Source of the DNA: an uncultured Verrucomicrobiae bacterium
GTDB taxonomy: Bacteria > Verrucomicrobiota > Verrucomicrobiia > Opitutales > JABDGR01
Length of the DNA: 56,718 nt
Direction: 5' to 3'
Assembly: GCA_963765205.1 (NCBI GenBank)
Contig: CAVXVB010000010.1
Coordinates: forward strand, 1 to 56,718
Part shown: positions 26,829 to 47,347 of the stretch, piece by piece
Layout: each line of letters begins with the position of its first letter
How positions within the stretch are numbered: the first letter of the stretch is position 1
Made by a program: the position numbers and the translations under genes
Notes under the pieces: generated by a model
What the model was told of the DNA's origin: nothing
Seen by the model: only the letters and a program-made list of their open reading frames with translations
Database searches by the model: none

Positions 26829-26832
26829 TTTT

Positions 26833-28040: not shown

Positions 28041-29858
28041 TTACCGCGGCGGCGCGGCGGCTTCCAATTCCTCCCAGCGGGCGAAGGCTTGGGCGTGTTC
28101 TTGCTCAATAATTTCGAGCCGCTGTTTCGCCGCCGTCACCCCCGCCGCGTCTTTTTTATAAAAGCCCGGGTCGGCGAGTTTTTCCGCGAGTTGCGCCTGC
28201 TCGCGCTCGAGCGCTTCGATCCGCGCGGGCAATCCTTCGAGTTCCTTGCGTTCTTTCCCATTCGTTTTCGCGGAATTTTTGCCCGTGGATTTTTGCCCGC
28301 CGCCCGCCCGCGCCGGTGAATTTTTTGCGGAGGCATTGGAAACCGGCGCCTGGTTTGCCAGGCGCTGCTGCTTCCAGTCCGTGTAGCCGCCGACGTAATC
28401 GCCGATTTGCCCGCCGCCCTCGAAGACGAGCGTGCTCGTGACGACGTTGTCCAGAAACTCGCGGTCGTGGCTGATGACGAGGAGCGTGCCGTTGAACTCG
28501 ACCAGCAGGTCCTCGAGCAGTTCCAGCGTCTCGGCGTCCAGGTCATTGGTCGGCTCGTCCATGACGAGGACGTTGGCGGGCTTGGTGAAGAGCCGCGCGA
28601 GCAGCAGCCGGTTGCGCTCGCCGCCCGAGAGCACCCGCGCGGGCGTGCGCGCGCGCTGCGGCTCGAACAGAAAATCCTGGAGGTAGCTGATGATGTTGCG
28701 CGTCCGCCCGTCAATCGTCACCGTGTCGTTGCCCCCGGCGATGTTGTCCGCGACGGATTTCGCGTCGTCAATCTGCGCGCGGAGCTGGTCGAAGTAAACG
28801 ACTTCCAGGCGCGTGCCATGCGTGATCGTTCCGGAAGTCGGCGCGATTTCGCCGAGGAGCAGTTTGATCAAGGTCGTCTTGCCCGCGCCGTTCGGGCCGA
28901 TGAGGCCGATCTTGTCGCCGCGGATGATGGTCGTGCTGAAGTCGCGCACCAGCGGCGGCTGGCCGGGCCACGCGAAGGTGACATTTTCCACCGCGACGAC
29001 TTTGACGCCCGAGCGCTCGGCCTCGGCCAGCCGCAGCGTCGCGTTGCCGGTGCGCTCGCGGCGGGCGCGGCGCTCGGCGCGCATTTCCTGCAACTGGTTG
29101 ATGCGGCTTTGCGCGCGCGTGCGCTGGGCGCGGACGCCCCGGCGCACCCACGCCTCCTCCTGCGCGAGTTTTTTGTCGAACAGCGCGCGCTGTTTTTCCT
29201 CCGCCTCCAGCACCTCCTGCTTGCGCGCGAGGTAGGTGTCGTAGTCGCAGGACCAGCTCACCAGCCGCCCGCGGTCCAGCTCGATGATGCGCGTCGCGAG
29301 CCGCCGCAAAAACGCCCGGTCGTGCGTGACGAACAGCAGGCTGAGCTTCGATTCGAGGAGAAAATTCTCCATCCACACAATGGATTCCACGTCCAAATGG
29401 TTGGTCGGCTCGTCGAGCAGCAGCAAGTTGGGCTGGGCCGCCAGCGCGCGGGCCAGCAGCGTCCGCCGCTTGAGGCCGCCGGACAGCTCGGCAAATTCCT
29501 GGTGGGGGTTCAGGCGCAGGCGCGCGAGCAAGTCATCGAGCCGCACGTCCTTTTCCCAATCCTCCTCATGCCCGCCGGGGTCGCGCAGGCCCGCCGCCAC
29601 GATGTCGTGGACCGTGCCGCGCACGTCGGTTGGAATCTCCTGCGTCAGCCGGGTGGCGACGGAGCCGTCGGGCCGGAACACCGAGCCGGAGTCGGCGGCC
29701 AATTCGCCGGCGATGACGCGCATCAAGGTGGATTTGCCCGCGCCGTTGCGCCCCACCAGGCACACGCGCTCGCCGGGGTCCACCTGCAGGTTGACCTTGT
29801 CCAGGATGAGCGGACCGCCAAACGAGAGGTCGAGATCGAGCAGACTAAGCAAAGCCAT
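28041..29858 (-). CDS. uup: ABC-F family ATPase Uup
   Basis: Two ABC cassettes (GRNGAGKS / LSGG / LLLDEPTNHLD and GPNGAGKT / LSGGERNR / DEPTNDLD), 'EEAWVRRGVRAQRTR' linker, and Uup C-terminal coiled coil (ELEGLPARIEALE...RWEELE). Confidence 0.93.
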   Translation of the reverse strand: MALLSLLDLDLSFGGPLILDKVNLQVDPGERVCLVGRNGAGKSTLMRVIAGELAADSGSVFRPDGSVATRLTQEIPTDVRGTVHDIVAAGLRDPGGHEEDWEKDVRLDDLLARLRLNPHQEFAELSGGLKRRTLLARALAAQPNLLLLDEPTNHLDVESIVWMENFLLESKLSLLFVTHDRAFLRRLATRIIELDRGRLVSWSCDYDTYLARKQEVLEAEEKQRALFDKKLAQEEAWVRRGVRAQRTRAQSRINQLQEMRAERRARRERTGNATLRLAEAERSGVKVVAVENVTFAWPGQPPLVRDFSTTIIRGDKIGLIGPNGAGKTTLIKLLLGEIAPTSGTITHGTRLEVVYFDQLRAQIDDAKSVADNIAGGNDTVTIDGRTRNIISYLQDFLFEPQRARTPARVLSGGERNRLLLARLFTKPANVLVMDEPTNDLDAETLELLEDLLVEFNGTLLVISHDREFLDNVVTSTLVFEGGGQIGDYVGGYTDWKQQRLANQAPVSNASAKNSPARAGGGQKSTGKNSAKTNGKERKELEGLPARIEALEREQAQLAEKLADPGFYKKDAAGVTAAKQRLEIIEQEHAQAFARWEELEAAAPPR

Positions 29859-29956
29859 AAGCACCCCACCCTACCCGCGAACCAGCGCGCCTGCAATGCG
29901 CAAAGGGAAATCCGTTCCACCGGGAAGGCGAATTGTCACGTTTGACGGTGCCTCAA

Positions 29957-30311: not shown

Positions 30312-33300
30312 ATGAGCCCCAACCCCGAGCTTACCCGCCTGCCTTATCCCGTGGCGCTGACCGCGCAACGGCTCGAAGACGGCTTGGCCAGTGACGAGGA
30401 TGTAGTTAAGACACTGTTGCGGCTGAAGGATTGTTTTGAGGCATCCATCAAATACCTCGGTTCGGTAGTGCTAGTGGATTATTTTCATAGCCCCGCTGTC
30501 CAGTCGGCGCGCACGGAAGCTCTGCTGCAAAAGATGATTCGACCGTCGCTGGGGGTGTGGGTGTCCACGATTGTCGGTGACGTGAGTCGATGGCTGGTAG
30601 CCAATTTGGACGACAGCCAAATTCCGCCGGTCGCGCGCTTGTTTATTTCGCCCGGTCAAGGTCAAGGGGCCAATCCCAAGTCCACGGAATTGTTTCAGCA
30701 AGCCGAGGCCTTTGTGGCCTACCGCAACGATGCCCTGGGGCACGGCGCACTTCGGTCGGATGCCACTTACCGGCAGGACCTCTCACGCTGGCAACCCCTG
30801 TTGCGGCAATTATTGGACGCCGTGGCCAGTCTCGCGCCGTGGCAACTATGCCTGGTCACGGATCCCGACCAATGCCAATCTTGGATGGGGCCTTTGCCCA
30901 GTGCATCCCGAGAATCGGTCCCTTTCCTGCGCGAGCAGGTTGGACATTTTGTCCTCATCCGCCCGGTGGAGCGCCTCCGCGTGGAGGTCAAAGACCTCCA
31001 TCCTTTTGTCTGTCTCCTTCCTGACAATGGACAAACGCACCGGCTGCATTATTATGATTTCCTGCACCGCTATCAGGAAACGCGCAAGGAAGCTGCCATG
31101 CTTGAATACGACGAGGGCTTCAAGCGAGCGTTCCCGGACCCACTGCCCGGACTGGAGGACGTTTTTACCCGGGAACTGCTGGCGCAGACCTTCAAGCGTC
31201 ATCAAAGTGCAATGCGCGAGATTGATGGCCGCGTCGCAAACTTCAGCGAATTGCTCGCCCAGCACGCGCACATCGTGGGCCGGGCGTTCGCGCTCGAACG
31301 GGTGCAAAAGTTTGTGGCGGAAAACGACCGCGGACTGCTGGTGATCGAGGCCGAGCCGGGCAAGGGCAAGACCGCCCTACTGGCGCACCTCATTGAGGAG
31401 ACTTTCGGCCATTATGCGCCCCCACCGGTGCATTTCTTCTACCGCCGCACTGCCGGCATTCAGAACCCCAACGTGTGCGTACGCAGTCTCTACGGCGCGT
31501 TGCTGGAAGCGCACAACCTCACTGAGGCCGAGGAATCGCGCGCGCAGCAGGACGCCGACGCCGTCTTTACCAAGCTCACCAACCTGCTTTCCCATGAGAT
31601 TGCACCGCGCCTTTTGCCTAGCCGACCGCAGCTCATTTTCATAGACGCGCTCGACGAGGCGGGTTCTGGCTCCATGGGCAGTACCGCCTTCCAGCGCGTG
31701 CCCGAAAACATTCCGGCAGGGGTGTATTTCATCGTGACCACCCGCCCTGTGAAAGAACGCGCGTCCCTGGCCCGGCGCGACAACCTTCATTGGCTCAACC
31801 TCGACGCGCTGGAATTCCGTGAATACAACCTGTGGGACAGCCAATTGTATGTTATCACCAAAATGGCCGATGCGGGCCTGGGCCCGGACACGCTCGCGGA
31901 AATTGCGCGCCTGGGCGCGGGTAATTTTCTCGTGCTGACGTTGCTGTGCCGACACCTTCGAACGGGACTGCGTTCGTCGGAGGTCGCAGATTTTCTGCAT
32001 CGGCTGGCGACTAACGGCGCCAAAGACATGCTCGGGTTCATCTACGAGGAATTCTGGGAACGGCTGGCGGAACGCTGCACCAGTGCGGACATGAATGTGC
32101 TCTGTGATGTGGCCGGGCTGTTCGCCACTGCTCAAGCTCCTGTTACGGCGGACATTCTTTGCGAGTGTCTCGAGTTGCGCGCGGGGGACTGGGACTTCGC
32201 GCTCCGGCGCCTGGGGGAATATCTCGCCATCATGGACGAGGAGCAAGCGGACGCACGCCAAGTTTTTTATCGGATTTACCATGAGACGTTCGCCGATTTC
32301 CTGCGCGGCAAATTTCACACTCACGAGCACCGTTTTAATGAGCTGTTGGGCAATTACGCCCTCGGGTGGGCCGCGCGTGACGACGGCTACGAACGCACCT
32401 TCAGCCTGCGCTTCGCGCCGACGCACCTGATTGCCGCCCGCCGTTGGGACGATTTGGAAAAACTTCTCACTGATCTGACTTTCCTTGAAGCCAAAAACGA
32501 AGCTGGGTTGGTCTTCGACCTGGCCACCGATTTCACCAACACCGTCAACGCCGTGCCCGCCGGGCGGCCCCAGCGCCATATCTTGGAATTGCTGGGCGAA
32601 GCTCTACGTCGTGAAATTCACTTTATCGCCCGACATGCAAAAGACTACCCGCAGGCATTATTTCAAGTTCTTTGGAATAATTGCTGGTGGTATGATTGCC
32701 CGGAGGTCGTTCCTCACTATAAGGAAGCCAAAGGCGAGTGGGTGCAACCCGCCCTGAAGCTATGCACCCTCATGGAAAACTGGCGCACGCAAAAAGAAAC
32801 CGTCCAGCCGGGATTTTATTGGGTCTGCTCGAAAGGACTGCCCCTGCAACCGCTCGGTGGCGGGCAGAGGACCGTCCTGCGCGCACATGAAGGCCCGATT
32901 GAGAGCGTTTGCTTCTCACCGGACGGAAGCACGCTCGCCAGCGGGTCTTGGGACAACACAGTGCGGGTGTGGGACTCCGCCAGTGGCCGGGAACGGGCCA
33001 TCCTGCGTGGGCATGATCTCACAGTTACGAGTGTCTGTTTCTCGCCGGACGGCGTACTCTCGCCAGCGGATCGGATGACAAAACGGTGCGGTTGTGGGAC
33101 GCCGCCAACGGGCAGGAACGGGCCGTCCTGCGCGGACATGAAGGCTTGGTTTCGAGCGTCTGTTTCTCGCCGGATGGGCGCATGCTCGCCAGCGGGTCGT
33201 CAGACAAAACGGTGCGGGTCTGGGACGCCGTTAGCGGCCAGGAATGGGCCGTCGTGTGCGGACATGAAAGCGGGGTTACGAGCGTTTGTTTCGCGCCGGA

Positions 33301-34758
33301 TGGGCGCACCTTCGCCAGTGGGTCGTCAGACAAAACGGTGCGGGTCTGGGACGCCGCCAGCGGCCAGGAACGGGCCGTACTGCGCGGACATGAAGACCGA
33401 GTTTCGAGCGTCTGTTTCTTGCCGGACGCGCACACCCTTGTCAGCGGGTCTTATGATCGTACCCATGAGGGTGTGGGATGCGGCCAGCGGCCAGGAACAG
33501 GCCGTCGTGCGCGGACATATACACCGGGTTTCGAGCGTTTGTTGCTCGCCGGACGGAAGCACACTCGCGAGCGGGTCGTGGGACAAAACGGTCCGGGTGT
33601 GGGATGCCGCCAGTGGCCGGGAACAGGCCGTCCTGCGCGCACATGAAAGTCCGGTATGGAGCGTATGTTTCTCGCCAGACTCGCGTACGCTCGCCAGCGG
33701 GTCTTGGGATCACACGGTGCGGATATGGGATGCAGCCAGCCGCCAGGAACAAGCCATCCTGCACGGTCATCAAAGCGGGGTTAAGAGCGTTTGCGCCTCG
33801 CTAGATGGGCGCATCCTCGCCAGCGGGTCGTCAGACAAAACCGTGAGGGTGTGGGATGCGGCCAGCGGCCAGGAACGACGCGTCCTGCGCGGTCACCAAG
33901 GCTCGGTTTCGAGTATTTGTTTCTCGCCGGAGGGGTGTACCTTTCGCCAGCGGATCGTATGACAGCTCAGTCCGGTTGTGGGACGCCGCCAGCGGTCAGG
34001 AAAGAGGCGTCCTATGCGGACATGAAGACTCGGTTTTGTGTGTTTCTTTCTCACCAGACGGGCGAACTTTCGCCAGCGGGTCACGGGATCACACGGTGCG
34101 GGTGTGGGACGTCGCCAGTGGCCAGGAACGATTCATCCTGCGCGGACATGAAAACTGGGTTACGAGTGTTTGTTTCTCATCGGATGGGAGCAAAATCGCC
34201 AGCGGGTCGTGGGACAAAACAGTGCGGGTGTGGGACGTCGCCAGTGGCCGGGAACAGGCCGTCTTGCGCGGACATGAACGCGAGGTTACGAGCATTTGTT
34301 TCTCGCCGGACGGGCGCAGCATCGCCAGCGGCGGGTCGTGGGGCGACCTCACGGTGCGGGTGTGGAACGTCGCCAGTGGCCGGGAACAGGCCATTCTGCG
34401 CGGTCATAAAAGCCGGGTTTCGAGCGTTTGTTTTTCGCTGAATGGACACACCCTCGCCAGCGGGTCGTATGACAAAACGATGCGAGTGTGGGAACCCGCC
34501 AGCGGAAAATGCCTTGAGGTGATTCAGGGATCCGGGGATACACAGGCCATCGCAGCGGGTTGTGAAAGTTTTCCCTGGTGGGCGTTGAGTCAGCAATTCG
34601 AAACTGTCATCGAGTGCGCCACCAGGAAAATTCCTGTGGCGTGGTTCGAGGCCGCCATTGAAAATATCAACACCAATCCTAATGGACGCGCTTGGACGGG
34701 CCGCTTGGTGAACCAAATTTACTTTATTCGCCTCGAAGATGGGGCCGATAAATCATGA
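30312..34758 (+). CDS. NLR-like STAND (NACHT/AAA-type) ATPase #1: HEPN-like N-terminus, ATPase, 13 WD40 repeats (~1480 aa after correcting indels at ~33053, ~33463, ~33942)
   Basis: Walker A AEPGKGKT, Walker B LIFIDALDE, HFFYRR, YRIYHETFADFL; N-terminal RNDALGH. WD40 repeats are continuous across ORFs 30261..33962, 33086..33646 and 33856..34758. Confidence 0.88.
32878..34510 (+). repeat. 13 tandem, highly similar 126-bp WD40-coding repeats
   Basis: L(R/C/H)(G/A)H...V.SVCFSPDG..LASGS.D.TVRVWD.ASG.E recurs at ~126-bp spacing with DNA-level similarity. Confidence 0.92.
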
Positions 34759-34797
34759 AGCATTTCAAATGCAAGTTCCACGCAACTCTATCAACAT

Positions 34798-35718
34798 ATG
34801 CATACCGCAGACTTAATCCGCCGTGAAGGGGTGGAGAATGCCGAGCCGTTTTCTGCGATGCTGCCGACGCTGGAGCATTGCTTCGGGCAACTTTCGGTCA
34901 AAAGGCAGTCGCACCTTGATGCTGTGACGCGGTTGGGCCACGGCTTCATCCAATTGCGCCGACGCGAAGAACCAAACTATCCGAACGCTGCCACCGGCCC
35001 CGAGGCGGAACGATCCACCCTGCGTCTTTTGCTGGCGTGGAACCTCCATGATTTCGGCGACATCCCGGTCAAAATTCCCGTCGAGTTTATTCACACCGAG
35101 GCCACGGCCCGCCGCCGCGAGGAAATCAAGCGCGGTGACTGGATTTCCTCCGCCCCTTACGACGACGAAAAATTCGACGCGCCGATCCGCGGCTGGCTCA
35201 TCCACCAGGCTATTCGCGCCGCCCTCGACGCCGACGCGCCATTGACGGCCCCATCCGACGCCATCATCACCCAGCTTGGATTGCCAGCCACCTTGCGGCG
35301 CAAGCTCAGCGCTTTGGAACGCGAGCAACTCGACTGGAACGCGCTCGTGGCCTACCAGCACCATGAGTATTTCGACGGCAAGGGCTGGCCGCGCGGCGTC
35401 AAACTCGACCCGAACGACCCGCTGATGGACGTGACGTTCGCCGATTTTCAAAGCGGCTGGTATGCCGACAAAATGTCGCGCGGCGACAAAGCGCGCCCGA
35501 TTTCCGCCACGCTGCCCGCCGACGTTTTTGCTGCGATGGAAGTGCGCCAAATCGAGAGCCTGGCTCGCAACCCCGCCGGGGCGCCGATGTATCACCGGGG
35601 CTGGCTCGCCTTGGTCAAAGCGTATCCCACCGAGGTTGACGCCTTGATTGACGGCATTTTCCCTGACGTGCGCCGACGCCGGGAAAAGCCGCCTGCACTA
35701 CCTGCGAAGGCCGGATAG
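34798..35718 (+). CDS. Stand-alone HD-GYP-like phosphohydrolase
   Basis: SHLDAVTRLG, AWNLHDFG (HD), QHHEYFDGKGWPRG (matches HHExxDGxGYP with GWP) and VTFAD, in HD-GYP order. Confidence 0.75.
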   Translation: MHTADLIRREGVENAEPFSAMLPTLEHCFGQLSVKRQSHLDAVTRLGHGFIQLRRREEPNYPNAATGPEAERSTLRLLLAWNLHDFGDIPVKIPVEFIHTEATARRREEIKRGDWISSAPYDDEKFDAPIRGWLIHQAIRAALDADAPLTAPSDAIITQLGLPATLRRKLSALEREQLDWNALVAYQHHEYFDGKGWPRGVKLDPNDPLMDVTFADFQSGWYADKMSRGDKARPISATLPADVFAAMEVRQIESLARNPAGAPMYHRGWLALVKAYPTEVDALIDGIFPDVRRRREKPPALPAKAG

Positions 35719-35796
35719 TGGCTTGCGCCCGCCAGACCTCATCCACAAACTTTGCCGTTTCACCCATCGGCTTGAATAACCCCAGGAATTGTTCCC

Positions 35797-38700
35797 ATGC
35801 ACTGTCCCAAATGTCATGGCCCGATGACCCGAGGCGAAGGTTTTTGGGTGTGCCTGAAGTGCGGGCACAAGGTAGCGACGCCGTCCGGCGCAACAGTGGA
35901 ATTCGCGGCGGAGTTGGACGCTTGGCCGCATGTGCTGGCCGCGCCGCTGGCCGAGTATGGCCGCGCGGCCACGCCCTACGAGCGCCTGCACCGCCTCACC
36001 GACGCCGTGGAAGTGCTGACCCGTTTTTGCACGACAATTATATTGGCGGATTTGCTTTCCCGCCGGAATGAATTTCCCGAAGACGTGAGGCTGGCGCTCG
36101 CCACCGATCTCGAACGCCCTTCGTTTGGCCGCTGGTGTGGTCTGCTGCGAACGAGTTTGTCGGCGTTGCCCAAGCAAAACTTTGTGGTACCCAAGTTGCC
36201 GGTTTTCGTACAGAAAAATTTGCTTCCTCTGCTTGATGATCTCATCCCGATGCGCAACCAGCTCGCGCACGCCGGCCGCCTCACCGAAAAGCTGGAAAAA
36301 CAATGGAGGGAGGAATGGCCGCCGCGGCTCAAGGAGCTGGTGCATTCGGCGGCGTTTTTTGCGGAGGTTGAAATTGTCGCCGAGCCTGCAGCCGGCGGGA
36401 TTTTTATACTGCGCGGCGTTCCCTCTCCCGGTGAATCGTTTCCGGTTTATGATCTGAAAAAACTCCCGGCGGATGCGCCGTCGCCGCAACCCGATCGGCT
36501 CTTGCTTTGTTGCGGCCCGCGCGCGGTGGATCTTTTCCCGTTGCACGCTTACGGCGACGTGTTTCATTATCTCGATAAAGGGCGTGAGGAAAAGCGTTCC
36601 GCCGGCGGATCACAGGCAACAGACCCACGCGCGTTTTTCGAGCCGGTGCCCGAGGCCTCGCCGTCCGGCTTGCTTTATTTCCGGCGCGGCGAGAAAGATT
36701 ATTTGGAATACACGAGTTTTTCCGCGCAAGCGGCGCACAGCCAGGAGGGTTTCGCCGCTCTCGAAAAATTCAAACAAGTTTTTCGCATTGAAGAATGGCG
36801 GCGCGCGGCGGCGGCGGTCGAGGCACGCCGGGAGTTTGATTTTCGCCCGTGGATGCGCGAATTGCTCGAACTATTAGTGGGACGCGACGCGCAAGTGGAT
36901 CAGGTCAACCAATGGCTCAAAAGCGCGAATGGCGGCTTGTGCTGGCTGCACGGGCATCCGGGGGTGGGGAAGTCGGCTTTCATGGCGGCGATGGCGGATC
37001 GTTTTTTCACCGATGAGCGCAAGGTTTGTAAAATCGTCCATTTCTTCCGGGCCACCGATGCGCGTGGCAACCGCATGAAGTTTCTGGAGAACGCGCTCAC
37101 CACGCTTGGCGCCGCCTTTGGCCGCGCGGAAACTCCCTCCACTGATCCGCGCGAGCGGCAGGATCAGTTCGCCAAACTTTTGCGCGAAACCGCCGCCGCC
37201 GAGCAGGGCAGGCCAGAACGCGAACGCAAGCGCATCATTTTCCTGCTCGACGGCCTGGATGAGGTGGCGCAGAACGACCGGGACTTTGCCGACGTGATTT
37301 TCCAAAACCTCGCACCGGGGGTCGTGTGGGCGTGCGCGGGCCGCGAGGAATTTGAACTAGGAAAGCGGTTTCGCGCGCACCAGGCCCATTTGCCTTTTGG
37401 CGAAAACGGCCTGCCGGCGCTGACCGATGGCGACGTGCGGGAAATTCTCGACCACGAATGCGGGCGGCAGATTTACGAACTCATCGCGCGCGACCGGCCC
37501 GAGACGCCGCCCGGCGGAAACAGCAACCCGTTTCTGGAGGAACTAGTGAAACGCTCCGCGGGCCTGCCGTTGTATTTGCGATTATTGGTGCAGGATATCC
37601 GGGAGGGGCGGCTTTCGTTCAAGGAAGGCCAGGAGAAAAATCTGCCGCATGGGCTGACCAGCTACTACGAGCGTTTGCTGGAACGGTTGCAAATCAGCGA
37701 CGTGTCGGCAGTGCTAACGCCGGTGTTTTGTCTGCTCGCCGTGGCCAAGGCGCCGCTGACTTTTGAGACGGTCAAATTGCTTATGGCTGAAGACCGGCTT
37801 TTGAAACGCCCCGGCGGCGAAAACTTGCTGCGGCGCGCGCTGGACTTTGGCCACCTCATGCTCAAACGCGTGACGATCGCAGAACTGCCCAATGACGCCG
37901 CAGCCGCCACCGAGCCCAAGACCGAAACCGGCTACACGCTCTACCACGAATCCTTCCGCGAGCACCTGCTGCAAAGCGACACGGTGAAAGAAAGCATCGG
38001 CGCCGCCAAGGACGACCTCAGCCAATTCGCCGTGCATTGGGAACAATGGAAAAACCGGTTATTTCCCTTCCGCTACGCCCTCAGATATGGCCCAGCTCAC
38101 CTCATCGAATTGCAACGCTGGGACGAAATCGAAAAACTGCTTACGACCATTTTCTTCCTAGAAGCGAAAAATGAGGCGGGCCTGGTCTTCGACTTGGCGA
38201 AGGATTTCACAAACACCATCAGCGCAATCCCTACTCTCCGACCACATCTTGGCATCTTGAGATTGCTGAACGAAGCTCTTCGTCGAGAAATTCAATTCAT
38301 AGCGCGTCACTCAAAAGACTACCCGCAGGCCTTATTTCAGATAATGTGGAATCTGGGCTGGTGGCATGATTGCCCGAATGTAAAGTCAACACATAATATT
38401 GATATTGAAAAAAGTAAAATAGAGCAATCTAACGCACAGACAATTTTTAATCTACGTGTAATCTTGGAAAATTGGCGTACACAAAAGGAAGCCACCCAGC
38501 CGAACCATTTTTGGGTTCGTGCAAAACATGCGCCAAATATACCGATCGGTGGAGTCCACCTTTCAGTACTACGTGGGCATGAAAATACCGTGCTTAGTGT
38601 AAGTGTCTCAAAGGATGGTAGGATAATTGCCAGTGGGTCGATGGATAAAACCGTAAGAATCTGGGATGCAGAGTCAGGGCGTGAACTGATGATTCTACGT

Positions 38701-40530
38701 GGGCATAATGATTGGGTGGAGTGCGTTGCGTTTTCGCCGAATGGGAAGAGTATCGCCAGTGCGTCTGGACAATGGCTTCTTGAACCTGGAGACAATACAG
38801 TTCGCATTTGGGATCTAGCAACCCGCTGTCAAGTTGCAGTCCTTAAAGGGCATTCAAGAAAAATTAAGAGTGTTGATTTTGCGCCAGACGGCACTATAAT
38901 TGCCACTGCTTCTGAAGATGGCACGATACGGTTGTGGGATGCAGTTACCGGAGAAGAATTTGCGATTCTTCAAGGACATGAAGAGGGTGTGGTGTGTGTA
39001 TGTTTTTCACCAGACGGGACTAAGATCATCAGCGGATCGTCGGACTTTTCGGTGCGAATTTGGGATGTGAAATCTAGGCGACAACTCGCTGTCTTTAAAG
39101 GGCATCAACGCTTAGATAACGCTTTACACTCTGGAATCACGAGCGTAAGTTTTTCTCCAGATGGGACAAAAATTGCTAGTGGATCGGACGATAAAGATAA
39201 CACAATTCGGATTTGGGACGCAGCTTCTCGTCGTCCTCTCACTGTTATTACAGGTCATCAAAATGGAGTTAAAAGCGTCTGTTTTTCGCCGGATGGATCG
39301 AAGCTTGTTAGTGGTTCCTCAGACAATACGGTTCGGGTATGGGATGTGGTGTCCGGCAATCCTGTTTCGATTCTAAAAGGGCATGAAGGCGGAGTAGAGA
39401 GTGTGAGATATTCGCCGGATGGGAGTAGAATCGTAAGTGGGTCGTGGGACAAAACTATACGAATTTGGAACGCTCATTTTGCAGGAGAGTTCGGCGTATC
39501 TGATCTGGAAGATGATTGGGTAGAGGGCCTAAAATATTCACCGGATGAAAAGACGATTGCCTGCGGAGCTAACTCAAGTGTGCTAGTATGCCACACGGAT
39601 TCCGGGAATGTACACTTCGTTACTCGTGGACATGAAGTTGAAGCAAGCAGTATGAGTTTCTCGCCGGACGGGAAGATTTTTGCCAGCGGAACATTGAACT
39701 GTGCCGTGCAGGTATTCAACGTTGCTTCCGGGAAGCTGCTCTTCACTTTAAAAGGACATACTTGGAGGGTTGTAAACGTAATCTTTTCGCCGGATGGAAA
39801 AAAGATTGCCAGCGGTTCTTGGGACAACACTATACGATTGTGGGATGCAGAGTCAGGGAGAGAACTTGCTACCTTTAAAGGGCATCATCATTCGGTTGAC
39901 TGCGTAGCGTTTTCGCCAGACGGGGCGAAGCTTGTAAGTCAGTCAAAGGAAGACCACACAGTACGGTTTTGGGATACAATCACCGGGCAAGAGTTGGTTG
40001 ATCTGATTGGGTTTGGGGACAAGGGGATTGCAAGCCTGAAGTTTTCGCCTGACGGATTGAAACTCGCAATTGTTTCAGAAGCCGACTTAGTGTTGATATG
40101 GGACACAGTGAATTATTGCGAGCATGTAGCCATCAGAAGTATAAGTAGACATGGTATTTCAAGCATCAACTTTTCGCCGGATGGGAGAAAGCTTGCCATT
40201 GGATTTGGAGAAAACTTGTGGCTCGGACAACATGTTTTGGCCGGGGACGGAATGATGAAAGTATACGATGTCGAAAGTGGATTGTGCCTTGAGGTGTTTC
40301 ATGGTGGAGGTGATACACGGGCGATTTCGGCGGGTCCAAATCAATTTCCTTGGCGAGCGATTCGTCAACGAGTTGAAACTGTAATTGAGGACGCAGCGAA
40401 TGGTACTCCTGCGGCCTGGTTCGAAGAAGCAATCGAAAACATTATTACCCATTCCTCAGGTAGGATGTGGACCGGAAAACACGCAAACCACCTTTACCTT
40501 ATCCAGTTAGAAGGCGGGAAAACAGGTTGA
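35797..40530 (+). CDS. NLR-like STAND ATPase #2: Zn ribbon, HEPN-like domain, ATPase, 13 WD40 repeats (1577 aa)
   Basis: CPKC..CLKC at the N-terminus; RNQLAH; Walker A GHPGVGKS, Walker B IFLLDGLDE, GLPLYLR, YTLYHESFREHL; GH...FSPDG...WD repeats. Confidence 0.9.
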   Translation: MHCPKCHGPMTRGEGFWVCLKCGHKVATPSGATVEFAAELDAWPHVLAAPLAEYGRAATPYERLHRLTDAVEVLTRFCTTIILADLLSRRNEFPEDVRLALATDLERPSFGRWCGLLRTSLSALPKQNFVVPKLPVFVQKNLLPLLDDLIPMRNQLAHAGRLTEKLEKQWREEWPPRLKELVHSAAFFAEVEIVAEPAAGGIFILRGVPSPGESFPVYDLKKLPADAPSPQPDRLLLCCGPRAVDLFPLHAYGDVFHYLDKGREEKRSAGGSQATDPRAFFEPVPEASPSGLLYFRRGEKDYLEYTSFSAQAAHSQEGFAALEKFKQVFRIEEWRRAAAAVEARREFDFRPWMRELLELLVGRDAQVDQVNQWLKSANGGLCWLHGHPGVGKSAFMAAMADRFFTDERKVCKIVHFFRATDARGNRMKFLENALTTLGAAFGRAETPSTDPRERQDQFAKLLRETAAAEQGRPERERKRIIFLLDGLDEVAQNDRDFADVIFQNLAPGVVWACAGREEFELGKRFRAHQAHLPFGENGLPALTDGDVREILDHECGRQIYELIARDRPETPPGGNSNPFLEELVKRSAGLPLYLRLLVQDIREGRLSFKEGQEKNLPHGLTSYYERLLERLQISDVSAVLTPVFCLLAVAKAPLTFETVKLLMAEDRLLKRPGGENLLRRALDFGHLMLKRVTIAELPNDAAAATEPKTETGYTLYHESFREHLLQSDTVKESIGAAKDDLSQFAVHWEQWKNRLFPFRYALRYGPAHLIELQRWDEIEKLLTTIFFLEAKNEAGLVFDLAKDFTNTISAIPTLRPHLGILRLLNEALRREIQFIARHSKDYPQALFQIMWNLGWWHDCPNVKSTHNIDIEKSKIEQSNAQTIFNLRVILENWRTQKEATQPNHFWVRAKHAPNIPIGGVHLSVLRGHENTVLSVSVSKDGRIIASGSMDKTVRIWDAESGRELMILRGHNDWVECVAFSPNGKSIASASGQWLLEPGDNTVRIWDLATRCQVAVLKGHSRKIKSVDFAPDGTIIATASEDGTIRLWDAVTGEEFAILQGHEEGVVCVCFSPDGTKIISGSSDFSVRIWDVKSRRQLAVFKGHQRLDNALHSGITSVSFSPDGTKIASGSDDKDNTIRIWDAASRRPLTVITGHQNGVKSVCFSPDGSKLVSGSSDNTVRVWDVVSGNPVSILKGHEGGVESVRYSPDGSRIVSGSWDKTIRIWNAHFAGEFGVSDLEDDWVEGLKYSPDEKTIACGANSSVLVCHTDSGNVHFVTRGHEVEASSMSFSPDGKIFASGTLNCAVQVFNVASGKLLFTLKGHTWRVVNVIFSPDGKKIASGSWDNTIRLWDAESGRELATFKGHHHSVDCVAFSPDGAKLVSQSKEDHTVRFWDTITGQELVDLIGFGDKGIASLKFSPDGLKLAIVSEADLVLIWDTVNYCEHVAIRSISRHGISSINFSPDGRKLAIGFGENLWLGQHVLAGDGMMKVYDVESGLCLEVFHGGGDTRAISAGPNQFPWRAIRQRVETVIEDAANGTPAAWFEEAIENIITHSSGRMWTGKHANHLYLIQLEGGKTG

Positions 40531-40563
40531 TTTTAGAGAACTGTCCTTTTATCACTCATCTTT

Positions 40564-43426
40564 ATGACTTTTACCTTCTGGACGGAATCGACTGCCGCAG
40601 TGGTGGAACCACGTGGACAGCAAACGTTCCAACTGTTGGTTCGCCGGGAGGGTGGACAGCTGGCGTCAAATGTGAAGCTGACGGTGGCCGTGTCCGCCGA
40701 GCCAGAGGGGGCGACATTCAAGGCACCGCGTTTCATTCAAACAAGTGGCAAGGGCATCGCGTCACTTCCTTTGCATGCGGGCGAGACGGTTGGGAAATTC
40801 ATAATTACAGTTTCCGTCGGTAAATGTTGCTGGATAGGAACGCTTTTTGTCACAGCGATTAATATTCCATACGCGCCGAGTTTGAATCTCACCGCACAAC
40901 AGGAGCAACTTCTGCGGATGCTTTATTGGGACAAGCAACGTTTGCAGGTGTTGCGTACTTTTGGCGGTGGGATGAGCGGCAGCGCCGTGCTCCAAGTGCA
41001 GGCAACCGATCTGCACGGGCGCAACGCCAAACAGGTGGTCAAAATCGGTCCGCGCGACGCGATGGGCGAGGAGGGCAAGAACTACCTGGCGCTCGCGGCC
41101 GCACTGCGAGAAAACGCCGCGCGAGTGGAGGCCTACGCCGAGTTTGGCCTGGCCGGCGCCATTGTTTACGCCGACGCCGGGGAGAGCAGCGCGCTTGAAG
41201 CGGTCAAGCCTTTCACCGACTTTTATACGGAACGCGAGCCGGAAGAAATCGCGCAGGCTATATTCGCTGTGTTGGGCCGGGGTCTGCCAAAAGTATATGC
41301 CCAGCACGAGGTCAAGCCGTTCACTCTGGGACAACTGGTGCATAAGTTCATGCCCGAGCACTTGGTGGTTTCTCTCGCGGGCGGACAGGGTGGGTGTGGA
41401 GTTTATCGGACGGGCGAGACACCGAAGCTATCGGCCAAGATCAAAAAACTCACCTCAAAGGATATCGAGCATATTGATCCGAGGGTGGCCAAAAGCGACT
41501 TGATCGTGCTGGCTGGTTTTCGCATCAGCAAAATGCAGGACGGCGATCTGAACCTCGAAGACAGCGCGCAAGAGCGCTACAAAGTCAAGGTTCGCTACGA
41601 CGGCGCGAAGGTGGCGGGTTTCACGTCGGGCGACACCGTGGATATCGTGGCGCGGGTGGTCACGAACCGCGAAGAGCGGATGAAATTCGCCGTGGGCGAT
41701 TGTCTCCAGCGCTTTGGTCTCAAGAGGAACCGCTTTGGATATGAATTGGCGGGTGAGAACTATCCCGATCCTCTGAGCTTGCTTAGCCAAGTTCTCGCCC
41801 AGCCGTGCGACACCGCGCTGGGCATTATTCACGGCGACTTGCACTGGGACAATGTGATGCTGGAATCGCCCTCTAACTGGCGGCTGATTGATTACGGGCT
41901 GACCGGCTCCGGCCCGATTTTATTTGATTATATCAAGCTTGAAACCTATCTGCGACTGAAAGTCTTGTCGAGGGATTCGAGCATCACTCCGACCCAGTTG
42001 CTGGAGTTTGAGCGCGCCCTGGTGAATAATCCCATCGGGCGGCTGGCCGACGCCCCGCCGTTGCCTCCGGTGCTCGCCAAGGCAGCGGACGCGATTCGCA
42101 CGATTCGGCGGCTGGCCCGGCCGTATTTGAGAAACGACTTCTTCGATTACATCCATTTTCTCTTTGCCTATGCTCTCGCCCTGGCGAAGTACTACCCAGC
42201 TCCTGAGCAATGGGAGACAGTCAAAACCGATGCTGCGGGCAAGAAAAAGTGCGAGAATCTGTCGCGTGAGTTTTTTTATGTGCTCGCTCCGGTGCTAGTG
42301 CTCGGGCGGCTGATTAAATGGAACCAGGTTGCGCACCAGCGTCGGGACAAACCGGCGGATTTTCCCCTCTCCTTGCACTTTGTCGGTCATGGGGAGACGC
42401 TGATTCCTAAACCAGACATGGTGTCGCTCGACGTGGGCAATGCCAGCGTACCCGGCGTAATTGACCATCATTTTAAGGGGCTGTCGAAAGATTCATCACC
42501 CCGTTGCACCGCGCAAGTAGTTTGGCAGCAACCCGAACTCGTGAGCCAGCATGTTGGGCTGAACCCTGTTGAAAACGTAACCTGGGTTACCCATACCGGA
42601 CCCGATTTTGACGCCGTTGCTTCCACCTATCTGGCTTGGCACCTGGCCTGCTTCGGATTTTTCCCACCAGGAGCCGCCGAAATTGGCGAAGTATTCCGCG
42701 CTGGTGGATGCAGGAAGCGAATTTCTGGAGACTGTTGCATTTCCTGAACGCACACCCTACGCGTTATTCACTATGCAGCTGAGCGGAGTGGAGGACAAAC
42801 ATCTCAGTCCCAAAGTAACTACTTTGCGCGATATTGAAATGATGCGGCAGGGGTTTCGCATGCTGGATTACTTGTCTGGCCTCGAAGCAACGGGAATCCA
42901 TGCTTTAGACTCGAACCTGGCCCCGCACGAACATGGGTTTTGGAACGTCCTCCTGAACATTCGGCAGGATGAGCTGAAGTTTAAAGAACATGATCTAAAG
43001 CTCGCCCGCCACATTACGGTAAGGTTTTGTCAAAATGACCGCGTCACGGAAGGAAAAGGCTTGGTTTTGCAGTTGCCCCAGGCAAAATTGTTCAAGGCGT
43101 GGGCACGGCGCGACAAGGAGACTGACGTGTTGGTCGTGCACTGGGTGGAATCGCCAAGCATCATCATTAGCGTTCCGCCAACGAGGCCGGGCGCGTTAAG
43201 AGGATTAGGCGCCGCGCTGGAACGCGCGGAAACCCAAAAGCGAATTATTCTCGGCCAGCAACGGCCCGGCCCGCCGCGCTGGCCCGACGTGGACAACAAT
43301 GATCCCTGGTATGACGGACGCAGCCCAACCCACAACTACACAATTGTGGCTGCCCCGCGCGGAGGCAGTGTGCTGGATTTGGAGGCCGTGGTTAATGTTC
43401 TTTCAAAAGAAGTATGGTGGCAATAG
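40564..43426 (+). CDS. Fusion of Ig-like domain, APH/protein-kinase-like phosphotransferase and DHH-like phosphoesterase (~950 aa after correcting a +1 indel at ~42685)
   Basis: GGGMSGSAV Gly loop, VVKIG, IIHGDLHWDNVM, LIDYG; then LDVGN...VIDHH...VTHTGPDFDA. ORFs 40564..42747 and 42608..43426 overlap and join at GAAE-(I/L)AKYSALVDAG. Confidence 0.78.
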
Positions 43427-43453
43427 CCTCTTTTTTACTTCACCCTTCTGCGA

Positions 43454-44401
43454 ATGAGCGCAATTGTAAGCATCGGTCTCAAGTTTCAGCGCGCCGCCCA
43501 TTGGCTGGGGCCGGAGTGGCTTCATCGGGCGCACACGGCTCTCACAGCCCATGAGGACCGCAAGTATTCTGGAGCTGTTGCTGACGGCGCCGCCTGCCTT
43601 GAAAGCGTGCTGAAGGCTTTACTGGTTGCCTGGAATCTGTCCGTGCCGGAAGCGGCCACGCTCGGACCGCTCATTGGCCGCGTTCGTGACAGCGGTCGCG
43701 CGCCTGGCGAATTGCTCGAACGTCTGAACGAAGCGGTTGTAATTCGCAACCGTGCCGTGCATGACCGGCCCGCGAAACTCATCAAAACTCAAGAGGCCGA
43801 CGCCTTCATGCTGCTTAGTGATTTGGGCCTTATAGTCGAATGGAGTTTGGAACTTATCGGCAGTTCGGATGAATACACCCCACAGGAAGCGGTGCCTGTA
43901 TTTTTAAGCGTTGGCACTCCGCATCGGCTTGACCAGGTCCAGTTTCTTTATCTCCTTCGTGAAAAAATGCGTGCACTGGGTGTCGAACTTCGTACCCTAA
44001 CCGCAGCAGTCTTTGACGAAAATAGCCCATTCTACCAATTGGCCGACATCCTTGCGGAATGCCAGGGTGTTTTAGTGGTGGGATTGGAGCGGTCACATGC
44101 ATATACGGTTTTCGAGAAGGAACATTCATTGGAGGAAACCCTACAAAAAGACCGTTATATTCCCACTGCTTGGAACCAAATCGAAGGCAGCATGGCTGCG
44201 GCGTTGAAACTACCCGTGTTGGTTTTGCGTGACAAACGGCTAGTCGAAGAAGGCATTTTTGAGGCGTCAAATCACCGCCATCGTATCTTTGTATTTGATC
44301 TGCATGACCAATGCCGAAACCTGTCTGAGGAATTAAGCGGGTTTCTCGCCGGCTGGGTGCAGTGTGTCCGTGTAGAGATGCCGAAAAAACGCATCGGTTG
44401 A
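43454..44401 (+). CDS. HEPN-like (DUF4145-type) domain fused to a TIR-like/Rossmannoid nucleotide-processing domain
   Basis: AACLESVLK...TLGPLI...IRNRAVHD; C-terminal VFLSVG...ILAECQGVLVVGLER...PTAWNQIEGSMAAALKLPVLVL. Confidence 0.68.
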   Translation: MSAIVSIGLKFQRAAHWLGPEWLHRAHTALTAHEDRKYSGAVADGAACLESVLKALLVAWNLSVPEAATLGPLIGRVRDSGRAPGELLERLNEAVVIRNRAVHDRPAKLIKTQEADAFMLLSDLGLIVEWSLELIGSSDEYTPQEAVPVFLSVGTPHRLDQVQFLYLLREKMRALGVELRTLTAAVFDENSPFYQLADILAECQGVLVVGLERSHAYTVFEKEHSLEETLQKDRYIPTAWNQIEGSMAAALKLPVLVLRDKRLVEEGIFEASNHRHRIFVFDLHDQCRNLSEELSGFLAGWVQCVRVEMPKKRIG

Positions 44402-44817: not shown

Positions 44818-45522
44818 ATGTCACCTTTGTCCAGCGCGCTCCGGGCTTATCATGCCGGTGATTTATCCGCGGCGTTCATTATTCGCCGCGACGATGGATT
44901 TGAACGCCGCATCCCGGCGTCGGCCTTTTTCGCCGATGGCGAGCTTCCCCCAATAGAGGCCCAGGCACTTGCGCTATGCAGAGGCCGGATTCTCGATGTT
45001 GGAACGGGAGCTGGAAGGCATTCCCTTAATCTGATCCGAAGGGGCTACGTGGTTACTTCCTTGGAGGTCTTGCCCGAAATGGAGGCCATTCTCCATGACA
45101 GAGGAGTCCGTCGGGTTGTCATATCGGACCTATTCGCATTCAATGGAGAAAGCTTCGATACCCTTCTGCTGTTGATGAACGGTATCGGAATGGTTGGCAC
45201 CCTCGAAGGCCTCAACCGGTTTCTACACCATGCTCACCGGATCGTTGAGCCGAACGGACAAATCCTCTGTGATTCGGTTGACGTGTCCATGACGAACGAC
45301 CCGGTTCATGTAGCCTACCGGCGGCGAAACGTTGAGCGGGGGCGTCCACCAGGTCAGCAGACGTTCACGATGATCCACCAAGCGCTGACTGGAGATGAAT
45401 TCCATTGGCTTCACGTCGACTTTGGATCGCTGGCCGAACATTGCAGGGGCGCGGGTTGGCTTGCGGAGTTGATCGCGCAGAAGCCAAATGGGCATTACCT
45501 CTGCCGTTTGTCAAAAATATGA
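44818..45522 (+). CDS. Class I SAM-dependent methyltransferase
   Basis: GRILDVGTGAGRHSL, FDTLLLLMNGIG, F.WLHVDF; 234 aa. Confidence 0.88.
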   Translation: MSPLSSALRAYHAGDLSAAFIIRRDDGFERRIPASAFFADGELPPIEAQALALCRGRILDVGTGAGRHSLNLIRRGYVVTSLEVLPEMEAILHDRGVRRVVISDLFAFNGESFDTLLLLMNGIGMVGTLEGLNRFLHHAHRIVEPNGQILCDSVDVSMTNDPVHVAYRRRNVERGRPPGQQTFTMIHQALTGDEFHWLHVDFGSLAEHCRGAGWLAELIAQKPNGHYLCRLSKI

Positions 45523-45885: not shown

Positions 45886-47347
45886 TCACCGCCGCGCGTC
45901 CTTGGCCCATTCGTAAACTTTCACATACTGCTTGGTGCTGGTCGTCCACGAAAAATCCTTTTTCATCCCATTAAGGCGCAGCGCCAGCAAATCCGCCGGG
46001 CGCTCGGTGTAGGTGTCGTAGGCGCGCTGGAGGGCGGAGTGCAGCGCGCCGGCCGTCGGCTCCTGGAACAAAAAGCCCGTCCCCAGCCCGCGGCCCTCCT
46101 GATACGGCTCGACCGTGTCCACCAGCCCGCCCGTGGCGCGGACGATGGGCGGCGTGCCGTAGGCCTGCGAATACATCTGGTTGAGGCCGCACGGCTCGAA
46201 GCGGCTGGGCATGACAAAAAAGTCCGCGCCCGCCTCGATGAGGTGCGCGAGTTGCTCGTCAAAGCCGATATAAGTGCCCACGCGCCCGGGATAATGCCGG
46301 GCCAATTCGCGGAAGGCCTCGGCCAGGCCCGCGTCGCCCGCGCCGAGCACGACGAACTGCGCGCCCATTTCCTTCAGCAAACCGGGCACCAGGGCGGCGA
46401 GCAGGTCCAGCCCCTTTTGCGGGTAGAGCCGCGCGATGGCGGCGAAAATCGGCGTCGCGGTCTGCTGGTGCAGGCCGAAGCGCTGTTGCAGGGCCGTCTT
46501 GCACGCGACCTTGCCGCTCATGTCCATCGGGCTGTAGAGCGCGGGCAACCGCGGGTCGCAGGCGGGATTCCACTCGTCCACGTCAATCCCGTTGGTGACG
46601 CCGATCAGGTCGCCTGCGCGAAAGCGCAGCAGGTCGTGCAGGCCGCAGCCGCCCGCCTGGCCCTGGATTTCCTGCGCGTAATGGCGCGAAACGGTGGTGA
46701 TTTTCGTCGCGTGATACAGCCCGCCCTTCATGAAATTGATCTGGCCGAAGCTCTCCAGATTGTCGGCTGAGAACAGCCAGGCCGGCAGGCCGGCGAAATC
46801 GAGGGTGCCGCGCGGGCTGTAGCCCTGGTCCTCGAGGTTGTGGATGGTGAACACGCTCGCCGCGCGGCCAAGCGGCCAGGGGCCTGTCCACCGTGTTGAG
46901 ATACACCGGCGCCAGCGCGGCGGGCCAGTCGTGCGCGTGGACAATGTCGGGCGTCCATTGATCCGCCCGGCACCAGTCCAGCGCCGCGCGGGTGAGGAAG
47001 ACGAAGCGGTCGGGGTTGTCGCCGTAGCCCGTGCCGTTCTCGCCATAAATGCCGATGCGGCCAAAATAGCGGCCGAACTCGATGAAGTTCATCTCGGCGT
47101 CCGACCCCGGCAGGGGCGTGCGCCAGACGCGGCAAAATTCCTCGATGCCAAAGCCCAGGTGGACGCTGACCACGCCCGCAAACGCGCGCCAGGCCGGGCC
47201 GGGCTTTAAAAACCCATAGAGCGGGCACACCACCCGCACCTCGTGCCCCTGCCCCGCCAATTCCTTCGACAGCGCGCCCACCACGTCGCCCAGCCCGCCC
47301 GTTTTCGCAAACGGCGCCACTTCGGTCGAAATCATCAGGATTTTCAT
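45886..47347 (-). CDS. glgA: Glycogen synthase (~486 aa after correcting a +1 indel in the G4 run at ~46880)
   Basis: EVAPFAKTGGLGDV, HAHDW, VFTIHNL, NGID, QKGLDL, MPSRFEPCGLNQMY, RATGGLVDTV split over two overlapping ORFs. Confidence 0.95.

Follow-up and report, generated by a model that had tools for sequence, protein, structure and literature searches.

In the window, that is, the whole 56,718-nt stretch of an uncultured Verrucomicrobiae contig that was analyzed, five neighboring genes (G1 to G5, Table 1) are read here, with a probability of about 0.5, as an accessory immune cluster made of a recurring core, namely HEPN-headed NACHT receptors together with a HEPN-NDT/TIR double effector, to which G2 and G4 are add-ons. 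The cluster is built from known kinds of parts, and it is the sensor and double-enzyme core, not the whole set, that recurs elsewhere. The domains, their intact catalytic-type motifs and the recurrence of the core were observed directly. The proposal of the first-pass annotation that this is an accessory cluster of the immune or conflict type is supported.

Table 1. Features of the five-gene cluster and its flanking genes (positions in the window)
Feature	Position	Strand	Description
uup	28041-29864	-	
G1	30312-34758	+	HEPN-like head, NACHT, APAF1_C-like helical region, WD40 array
Tandem WD40 DNA repeat inside G1	32872-34505	+	Period 126 bp, strong internal conservation (TRF)
G2	34798-35718	+	Stand-alone divergent HD-GYP-like phosphohydrolase; start codon uncertain
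G3	35797-40530	+	Zn ribbon, HEPN-like head and small beta domain, NACHT, WD40 sensor
G4	40564-43426	+	Ig-like, TCAD9 (APH-type) kinase, DHH-like domain; one indel near 42685
G5	43454-44401	+	HEPN fused to NDT/TIR-fold domain
Methyltransferase gene	44818-45522		Located between G5 and glgA
glgA	45886-47347	-	

The first-pass annotation had described five co-oriented genes behind an AT-rich leader, in a compositionally patchy interval between uup and glgA, and each of these points was confirmed. The intergenic gaps are 39, 78, 33 and 27 bp, the leader lies upstream of G1, and the GC content of some 1-kb bins falls to 0.47-0.49, compared with 0.60-0.62 in most contigs; GC3 is also unequal among the five genes. 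The numbers of promoters (11 vs. 6.1 ± 2.6) and terminators (25 vs. 19.1 ± 5.0) found by scanning were near chance. In a genome of the same family, the glgA-uup interval carries unrelated cargo. A separate DUF5131-TcmP pair is located on the opposite side of uup. All domains named in the first-pass annotation are present in the five genes, and the labels TIR-like, kinase and HD-GYP needed refining.

Both G1 and G3 show the hallmarks of NACHT-clade STAND proteins, i.e., a Walker A motif (EPGKGKT in G1 and GHPGVGKS in G3), a D[GAS]hDE Walker B motif (DALDE and DGLDE) and a layout in which an N-terminal effector, here the HEPN-like head, is followed by a C-terminal WD40 sensor. Profile searches matched NPHP3_N in both (E 1e-12 for G1 and 2e-13 for G3) and APAF1_C in G1 (E 5e-4), and the AF2 model of G3 has a pLDDT of 92.5. 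The head of G1, which fits the family profile, contains RNDALGH at residue 138, and that of G3 contains R153-N-x3-H158. Since each receptor has its own HEPN head with an intact motif, neither looks like an effector-less sensor requiring a helper. The two proteins are 32% identical in the NACHT and 23% in the head; a recent duplication is ruled out by the former value. The WD40 array of G1 comprises 12.9 copies with 75% matches according to TRF, and the mean pairwise DNA identity is 0.75 across 11 anchored units. For G3, comparison with the seven closest homologues revealed 53-58% identity in the head and 54-71% in the NACHT; in the sensor, identity is at most 27%, with four of the seven aligning and three failing to do so. 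The body of this gene has a GC3 of 0.70 and its sensor 0.42. Such a diverged sensor with foreign GC3 suggests that sensors have been swapped, as happens in immune receptors.

The HEPN-like head represents a large family (4,310 clusters at E <= 1e-3 and 448 at 1e-30), for which no model in Pfam, PADLOC, NCBIfam or PHROG scored above its cut-off. The R and H residues are invariant in all 153 aligned domains that have residues at these positions (three further rows are gapped), spaced as Rx4H in 145 and Rx5H in 8. The best structural matches were the Roquin N-terminus (Z 10.4, rmsd 2.6, 121 aligned residues), a score short of the value that the tool sets for helical bundles, with unrelated rows reaching 8.5, and a HEPN toxin (Z 8.7); Foldseek returned nothing at E <= 1e-3. 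The structure comparison mostly covered the part of the head outside its additional beta domain (approximately residues 190-320). Among the best head matches of at least 600 aa, 129 of 130 contain the NACHT Walker B signature, and WD40 repeats were detected in 51 of the 113 matches of at least 1000 aa; two close homologues are annotated as TPR proteins. Family members have Zn-ribbon, SAM or HEAT caps and are often in tandem, and large genomes contain expansions of the family along with fusions to SAM, HEAT and kinase domains. The family is rare: in a sample from one phylum, at least 2 of 401 genomes contained it, a minimum given that scoring was confined to two candidates in each genome, and none of five close relatives did.

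G5 combines two enzyme-like halves, and its AF2 model has a pLDDT of 89.1. In an alignment of 43 sequences, R98 and H103 are invariant and E244 is conserved in at least 90%. The first half has the HEPN fold (vs. 2hsb: Z 14.3, rmsd 2.2, 117 aligned residues), and weak matches to DUF4145 and HEPN were obtained for 17 and 16 of the 43 homologues, respectively. The second half has the flavodoxin-like fold and conserved glutamate (E244) of TIR/NDT N-glycosidases. The fold behind the earlier label "TIR-like" is present, and it is matched equally well or better by nucleotide N-glycosidases (MilB, Z 13.8; NDT, 12.4) than by TIR domains (12.1). No homologue matched the Pfam TIR, TIR_2 and DUF4062, CBASS TIR or NDT models at E <= 0.1 (0/43), and TIR was dropped as a specific family name. 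Foldseek with G5 produced no useful match, only mis-aligned eIF2B rows. Full-length G5 was found solely in the seed genome among 401 genomes of another phylum, its TIR half in four, and no G5 in viral contigs. A complex prediction for the G3 head and G5, which was made without folded controls, scored 0.01 (mark 0.32) and speaks neither for nor against an interaction.

The first-pass annotation had proposed to abandon the idea of a system if its components never co-occurred elsewhere, and the HEPN-headed NACHT family and the HEPN-NDT/TIR protein do co-occur. The head family lies near full-length G5 homologues in three of the five contigs with at least 10 kb of sequence, one of which bears it twice, compared with none of seven TIR-only controls, and the association persists after the removal of 20 close sequences from the profile; the sample is small and gene orientations are mixed. 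The head domain is absent from the other two long contigs and from all nine short ones, and in one locus (L013) the neighboring gene is truncated by the contig end ahead of any NACHT. Two or more heads are present in five of the seven loci with at least 10 kb, including this window, and single receptors also exist (L060 and L068). By contrast, a fixed five-gene operon is not supported: 33 loci anchored on G5 gave no match to G2 or G4, and 14 DHH-anchored regions contain no NACHT, G5, G2 or TCAD9, the closest G4 homologues lying outside the regions covered. Neighbors and their orientations vary from locus to locus. On a Caballeronia plasmid, a degenerate DHH-like gene is oriented divergently from an adjacent receptor of the family, an unrelated HD gene adjoins a G5 homologue and receptors in Ga0351853_1042, and an ADP-ribosylglycohydrolase is next after G5 in L011.

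With regard to the remaining two genes, G2 keeps the motifs of an HD-GYP-like enzyme (H39, H84-D85, H136, HHEYFDGKGWP and D216, with GWP replacing GYP), as had been claimed, and its Pfam HD_5 match (E 0.018, 15.3 bits) stays below the cut-off of 27.2; the match to PDB 5z7c has an E-value of 0.35. Close homologues were found neither in plasmids, 300 other genomes, PDB nor PHROGs, and 15 of these genomes gave motif-level matches only (E >= 1e-4). The kinase predicted in G4 is present and could be refined to the TCAD9/APH type (E 5e-36, 125 bits vs. a cut-off of 40), with intact GGGMSG/K/E/HGDLH/DYG motifs. Weaker matches to Invasin_D3 (Ig-like, E 0.007) and DHH (E 0.025) flank this assignment, and the DHH-like domain contains LDVG, IDHH, HTGPDFD and DPWYDGR; the motifs of G4 are kept in ten intact homologues. 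Among DHH-like sequences, the triad is conserved (D 49/49, H 46/49, H 49/49) together with HxxPDxD (48-50 of 50), and 16 of 20 gave a weak Pfam DHH match. In canonical DHH proteins, DxD precedes DHH. The order in G4 is reversed, as positions 2-25 of the Pfam DHH model align at residue 677 and the triad is at 633, and the location of HxxPDxD downstream of the triad suggests a circular permutation. Elsewhere, this domain is fused to kinases, cyclases, TIR, CorA-like and caspase modules, and PADLOC CorA matches were obtained for six related proteins. Full-length G4 was absent from 400 other genomes of the phylum (nine weak kinase-motif matches), no locus came from viral contigs and no plasmid match was found.

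Several reading frames are needed to cover G1, its WD40 array containing three indels (near 33055, 33465 and 33930), at which repeat spacings are 125, 253 and 127, i.e., not multiples of 126; the single indel of G4 is spanned by the ten intact homologues (894-963 aa). These four indels are probably assembly errors. Genuine indels, with G1 and G4 as pseudogenes of a decaying cluster, would agree with four indels within 14 kb, a density above the strict genome-wide rate of approximately one per 13 kb. However, 311 strict frame switches occur across the genome, with glgA among the genes affected, compared with none in nine stretches from relatives, and all motifs are intact with no in-frame stops besides the frame shifts, making decay extremely unlikely.

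By analogy with what is known of STAND proteins and HEPN domains, an invader protein, most likely phage-derived, would be bound by each WD40 sensor, whereupon the NACHT module would exchange its nucleotide and oligomerize. Oligomerization may unite the HEPN heads into a composite RNase site, and the resulting cleavage of cellular RNA would halt growth or abort the infection. With an effector in each, the two receptors would broaden recognition rather than act as an obligate sensor-helper pair. G5, probably co-selected with the receptors, would supply a second RNase and a putative NAD+/nucleotide N-glycosidase. G2 and G4 may be nucleotide-modifying enzymes locally recruited from the same gene pool, which could damp or add to the response and would not be fixed members. 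Counting against this core-plus-add-ons reading are the low fold score of the receptor head, the small co-occurrence sample with its mixed orientations and the contigs that lack a head domain; in addition, the tight co-orientation of the five genes argues for more integration, and the density of four indels leaves room for decay of G1.

The co-orientation and short gaps speak for one integrated five-gene system, in which the receptors would work as a pair or would draw in G5 by contacts between HEPN domains. The G5 glycosidase would then produce a nucleotide signal, whose threshold or resetting would fall to the HD, DHH and kinase enzymes. The fusions of DHH-like domains to cyclases, TIR and CorA-like modules, which is the company of signal degraders such as NrN (PMC10600005), are in line with it, as are the DHH-like gene on the Caballeronia plasmid, the HD gene of Ga0351853_1042 and the ADP-ribosylglycohydrolase of L011. 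However, none of the five genes was found to encode a known cyclase domain or a known receptor for nucleotide signals, and the circuit of sensing, signaling and resetting envisaged in the first-pass annotation is therefore without support; the lack of G2 and G4 from the G5-anchored loci, the composition of the DHH-anchored regions, the HEPN motif retained by both receptors and the existence of single receptors also make an integrated system rather unlikely. An opposite view, which we consider unlikely on balance, is a defense-island pile-up of five independent modules in one insertion slot, with the G5-receptor link reflecting the general clustering of conflict genes. The varying neighbors and orientations, the low identity between G1 and G3, the gene-specific GC3 and the separate pair across uup fit such a pile-up, but a family as rare as the head would then hardly be expected near G5 in three of five long contigs.

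A role outside phage defense was also considered, i.e., kin/non-self recognition or stress-triggered death, with the near-identical WD40 units of G1 reshuffling like those of fungal heterokaryon-incompatibility receptors. The 126-bp array, the expansions and fusions of the family in large genomes and the NPHP3_N-type NACHT are compatible with this, but the tested prokaryotic STAND receptors of the consulted papers sense phage proteins and there is no sign of a multicellular habit here, so that we regard it as very unlikely. A more ambitious possibility, distinctly unlikely in our view, is a bacterial NLR network in which unlike HEPN heads of the divergent receptors, and of G5, would combine into composite RNase sites (two inputs being needed, or G5 being recruited via HEPN), while the NDT/TIR product would be checked by the HD-GYP-like enzyme, the permuted DHH domain and the small-molecule kinase. 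If true, the locus would encode an immune system with paired receptors and nucleotide tuning, for which the searches made gave no named counterpart.

The locus exposes three families that have no library model: the HEPN-like receptor head, the HEPN-NDT/TIR double effector, which tends to neighbor this head, and the motif-reordered DHH domain. If the receptors cut RNA upon activation, they would constitute a testable class of NLRs with RNase output, and tandem receptors with unlike heads would allow a direct test of plant/animal-style paired NLRs in bacteria.

The first-pass annotation did not recognize the combination as a named system, and PADLOC and NCBIfam, within the dates of these libraries, likewise gave no matching system, only WD40 cross-matches and weak STAND matches. 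Thoeris- and CBASS-type systems consist of a signal producer and a known receptor-effector (SLOG, Macro, CARF, SAVED or STING). No known receptor-effector was found by Pfam (13 gene pieces, E <= 5) or PADLOC, and membership in Thoeris was rejected for lack of this partner. The second half of G5 shares the flavodoxin-like fold and conserved glutamate with Thoeris ThsB, CBASS TIR, DUF4062 Swarozyc (10.64898/2026.05.01.722283), MilB and Rcl, and differs in that its family lacks their profile matches and no cognate receptor-effector was found at the locus. The G4 kinase has the TCAD9 match and active APH-type motifs in common with vWA-MoxR ternary conflict systems (PMC7159879), in contrast to which it shares a polypeptide with Ig-like and DHH-like domains; a scan of 12 ORFs between 26 and 45.5 kb revealed no vWA, MoxR or VMAP gene, and membership was rejected. 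The DHH triad is shared with NrN, the DHH phosphodiesterase that occurs with CorA in type III CRISPR (PMC10600005), and relatives of the G4 domain are fused to CorA-like modules, whereas HxxPDxD follows the triad in G4 and the scanned ORFs include no CRISPR or CorA gene. The Rx4-6H motif and helical fold are common to the HEPN RNase superfamily (PMC3710099), to which G5 is related as a DUF4145-like protein; the available part of that survey mentions HEPN-STAND fusions in bacteria as well as one instance of DUF4145-TIR-ATPase, and no linkage of HEPN-NACHT receptors to a two-domain HEPN-NDT/TIR protein was seen in it. In architecture, G1 and G3 resemble bNACHT (10.1101/2022.07.19.500537), for which HEPN-effector and beta-propeller types are described, and Avs STAND proteins (PMC13581612): the effector-NACHT-repeat layout, D[GAS]hDE Walker B and beta-propeller/TPR sensors are alike, and HEPN is among the listed effector types. 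The best Avs score at the locus is Avs1b (E 1e-3), and G1 and G3 are set apart from these proteins by a head without a model, the added beta domain, the caps, the frequent tandem arrangement and the nearby HEPN-NDT/TIR gene.

The architecture and motifs of the cluster can be read directly from the window, which is one entire contig of a 4.0 Mb genome in 12 contigs. G1-G5 run on the + strand from 30312 to 44401 with intergenic gaps of 39, 78, 33, and 27 bp, and an AT-rich leader precedes them; the first-pass annotation, which had described five co-oriented genes with gaps under 80 bp behind such a leader, is thus borne out. Three indels interrupt G1, all within its 126-bp WD40 array (which we take to resemble fungal incompatibility repeats), and one interrupts G4 near 42685. 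A crude coding-score scan counted 311 strict frame switches across the source genome, glgA being among the affected genes, which suggests an error-prone assembly, and 0 in nine stretches of relatives' DNA, for which the source-genome rate predicts about 7. Since ten intact G4 homologues (894-963 aa) also span the break near 42685, the four indels of the cluster are probably assembly errors. The ATG overlapping the G1 stop (window 34755-34826) gives merely a 23-residue frame, and the true G2 start may be hidden by one more indel.

Both receptors, G1 and G3, match NPHP3_N/NACHT (E = 1e-12 and 2e-13, respectively) and WD40 models and have intact Walker motifs, with only 32% identity between their NACHT domains. 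Their N-terminal 330 residues define a head family whose 12 seeds share 19-32% identity and invariant R153, N154, and H158. At E ≤ 1e-3 the head profile retrieved 4,310 clusters; 448 remained at 1e-30. In the best 150 proteins, selected with a profile that itself holds the motif, every one of the 153 aligned domains with residues at these positions has both R and H (156 aligned, 3 gapped there). Among the same 150, the NACHT Walker B signature was present in 129 of 130 proteins of at least 600 aa, WD40 in 51 of 113 of at least 1000 aa, and SAM-like and Zn-ribbon-like caps in 26 and 33 proteins, respectively. The G3 head model (pLDDT 92.5) best matched the N-terminus of Roquin (Z 10.4), followed by a HEPN toxin (Z 8.7); because unrelated helical bundles score up to 8.5, the HEPN assignment rests on motif and fold jointly. 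The seven closest G3 homologues are 53-58% identical in the head and 54-71% in NACHT vs at most 27% in the sensor, and GC3 is 0.42 in the WD40 sensor (window 38542-40527) vs 0.70 in the remainder of the gene. Sequence comparison thus shows sensor swapping and suggests that the G3 sensor came from another donor. Elsewhere, genome G401 has an expanded head family (L059, L060, L061) with HEAT-repeat caps and tandem copies, one adjoined by two Ser/Thr kinase genes, and at locus L064 a head fragment is followed by DUF4145 HEPN, WD40, and CHAT genes.

The search with G5 retrieved fifty other proteins, mostly full length, at 37-55% identity. The alignment of 43 sequences shows no variation at R98 or H103 and at least 90% conservation at E244; Pfam TIR, DUF4062, and NDT models matched none of the 43. 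The G5 model (pLDDT 89.1) resembles HEPN (Z 14.3) and, in its second domain, MilB (13.8), NDT (12.4), and TIR (12.1). Scans with the G5 alignment yielded 33 loci, both halves being matched in 15 loci on 14 contigs. The head domain was found on three of the five both-halves contigs with at least 10 kb of sequence (L011, L013, and Ga0351853_1042; see the table); the other two, L012 and L029, have no head, the sequence in each coming mostly from one side of the G5 homologue. No head was detected on the nine both-halves contigs below 7 kb, one of which (L026) has a WD40 tail immediately upstream, nor in seven TIR-only control loci of at least 10 kb. Co-occurrence was unchanged after 20 close sequences were dropped from the profile, and at least two heads occur in five of seven loci of at least 10 kb (the window counted, and three of the seven from one genome). 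The putative core of HEPN-headed receptor and G5 is therefore shown to recur. In all, the 31 kb Ga0351853_1042 (L027/L030) carries two HEPN-NDT/TIR genes as well as three NACHT genes with a HEPN head and one fragment.

Features of the window and of other loci
Contig or locus	Feature	Coordinates	Strand	Remarks
Window	Very long ORFs, 4177, 2490, 958, and 1462 aa	1-22786 and 48716-53104	-	ORF calls
Window	DUF5131 + TcmP pair	26079-27987	-	GC 0.48-0.49; matches PADLOC candidates PDC-M30, PDC-M41 A/B
Window	Class I SAM methyltransferase gene	44818-45522	+	416 bp downstream of G5
Window	glgA	45886-47347	-	Broken by a frame switch
L011	Core			Two tandem receptors, convergent with G5 homologue and ADP-ribosylglycohydrolase
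L013	Core			Head in next gene downstream of G5 homologue; gene ends at contig edge
Ga0351853_1042	Core			Receptor, G5 homologue, Hsp70-Swt1-HEPN, receptor in single run; then HD-CE/HD gene, second G5 homologue, third receptor
L146	Head fusion	2947-6696	+	HEPN-like head joined to Ser/Thr kinase and helical-repeat tail, NACHT replaced
L068 (Caballeronia plasmid)	Degenerate DHH-like gene	12203-14536	-	Divergent from family receptor; product C-terminus hydrophobic

G4 scores 125 bits against TCAD9 (cut-off 40), and its kinase motifs are kept in 10 homologues. In its C-terminal domain the DHH triad is conserved in 49, 46, and 49 of 49 sequences, and HxxPDxD is also kept. Canonical DHH proteins carry DxD before the triad; here it follows, which suggests a circular permutation. 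The domain's fusion partners in other proteins (P0077-P0113; L134-L147) are Ser/Thr kinases, TIR_2, and cyclase-TPR and CorA-like modules; triad-less forms are joined to a putative caspase domain identified by eye. Judged by these architectures, the domain is a shuffled module. A 60-member, all-viral Atlas cluster resembles the domain and offers a lead to a candidate phage counter-defence enzyme. G2 carries HD-GYP-like motifs with profile and PDB scores under cut-off, and no close homologue was found in plasmids, 300 genomes, or PHROGs.

Neither G2 nor G4 was matched across the 33 G5-anchored loci. In another phylum, 15 of 401 genomes carry the DHH-like domain, and 14 wider DHH-anchored regions from 10 of the 15 gave no NACHT, G5, G2, or TCAD9 match, with one kinase-fused head about 6 kb from a DHH-like gene; these counts cover G5- and DHH-anchored regions. 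The L068 DHH-like protein reached an hhalign score of 33.5 vs at most 21.1 in 30 shuffles. In these regions the proposal of a fixed five-gene operon finds no support, and the expected co-occurrence of components was seen for receptor head and G5, not for G2 and G4.

Among nine same-family genomes, eight matched uup. Five uup regions were compared, and only G813 has both glgA and uup, the other four contigs stopping early or differing in arrangement. There the two genes keep the window's order, and the ~9.8 kb between them holds unrelated genes, none matching G1-G5; the SAM methyltransferase gene was not found there either. No receptor head was found in the five relatives examined (87-96% complete genomes), and the DUF5131-TcmP pair was not found at the corresponding place in G808 and G813. 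The 1462-aa product has Gly/Asn/Thr-rich repeats and presumably a terminal VPEP motif, its neighbour presumably being an exosortase-like gene.

We favour, at a probability of about one half, self-contained sensor-RNase receptors with a linked G5 RNase/N-glycosidase and G2/G4 add-ons. WD40 sensors would bind a ligand, after which NACHT would oligomerise; HEPN catalysis proceeds via a dimer, and the heads would dimerise and cleave RNA. G5 would act as a linked RNase plus N-glycosidase, with G2 and G4 as putative add-ons. An integrated signalling circuit, as first proposed, is unlikely: Pfam and PADLOC profile scans for SLOG, Macro, CARF, SAVED, and STING domains or a cyclase found no known signal receptor or cyclase in G1-G5. 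An independent pile-up of genes is equally unlikely. A conflict role other than phage defence appears improbable, and decay, to be set beside the probable assembly origin of the indels, very improbable.

No published description of the G1-G5 combination was found in titles and abstract openings of mostly open-access literature, and the cluster, initially not recognised as any named system, remains unnamed after profile and literature searches. Seven supplementary files of PMC13581612 contain no mention of HEPN, TCAD9, or DHH, and three further large files may list this clade; passages of 10.64898/2025.12.03.692087 show no occurrence of HEPN, DHH, WD40, or kinase. The comparison literature also comprises PMC7159879, PMC8195603, PMC10600005, and 10.64898/2026.05.01.722283. 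Bacterial NACHTs with HEPN effectors and beta-propeller sensors are listed in 10.1101/2022.07.19.500537, and HEPN-STAND fusions are noted in PMC3710099. G1-G5 is, on predicted domains, a real, unnamed immune-type cluster assembled from known kinds of parts; it has a two-component recurring core and three families without library models, namely the receptor head, HEPN-NDT/TIR, and the motif-reordered DHH-like domain.
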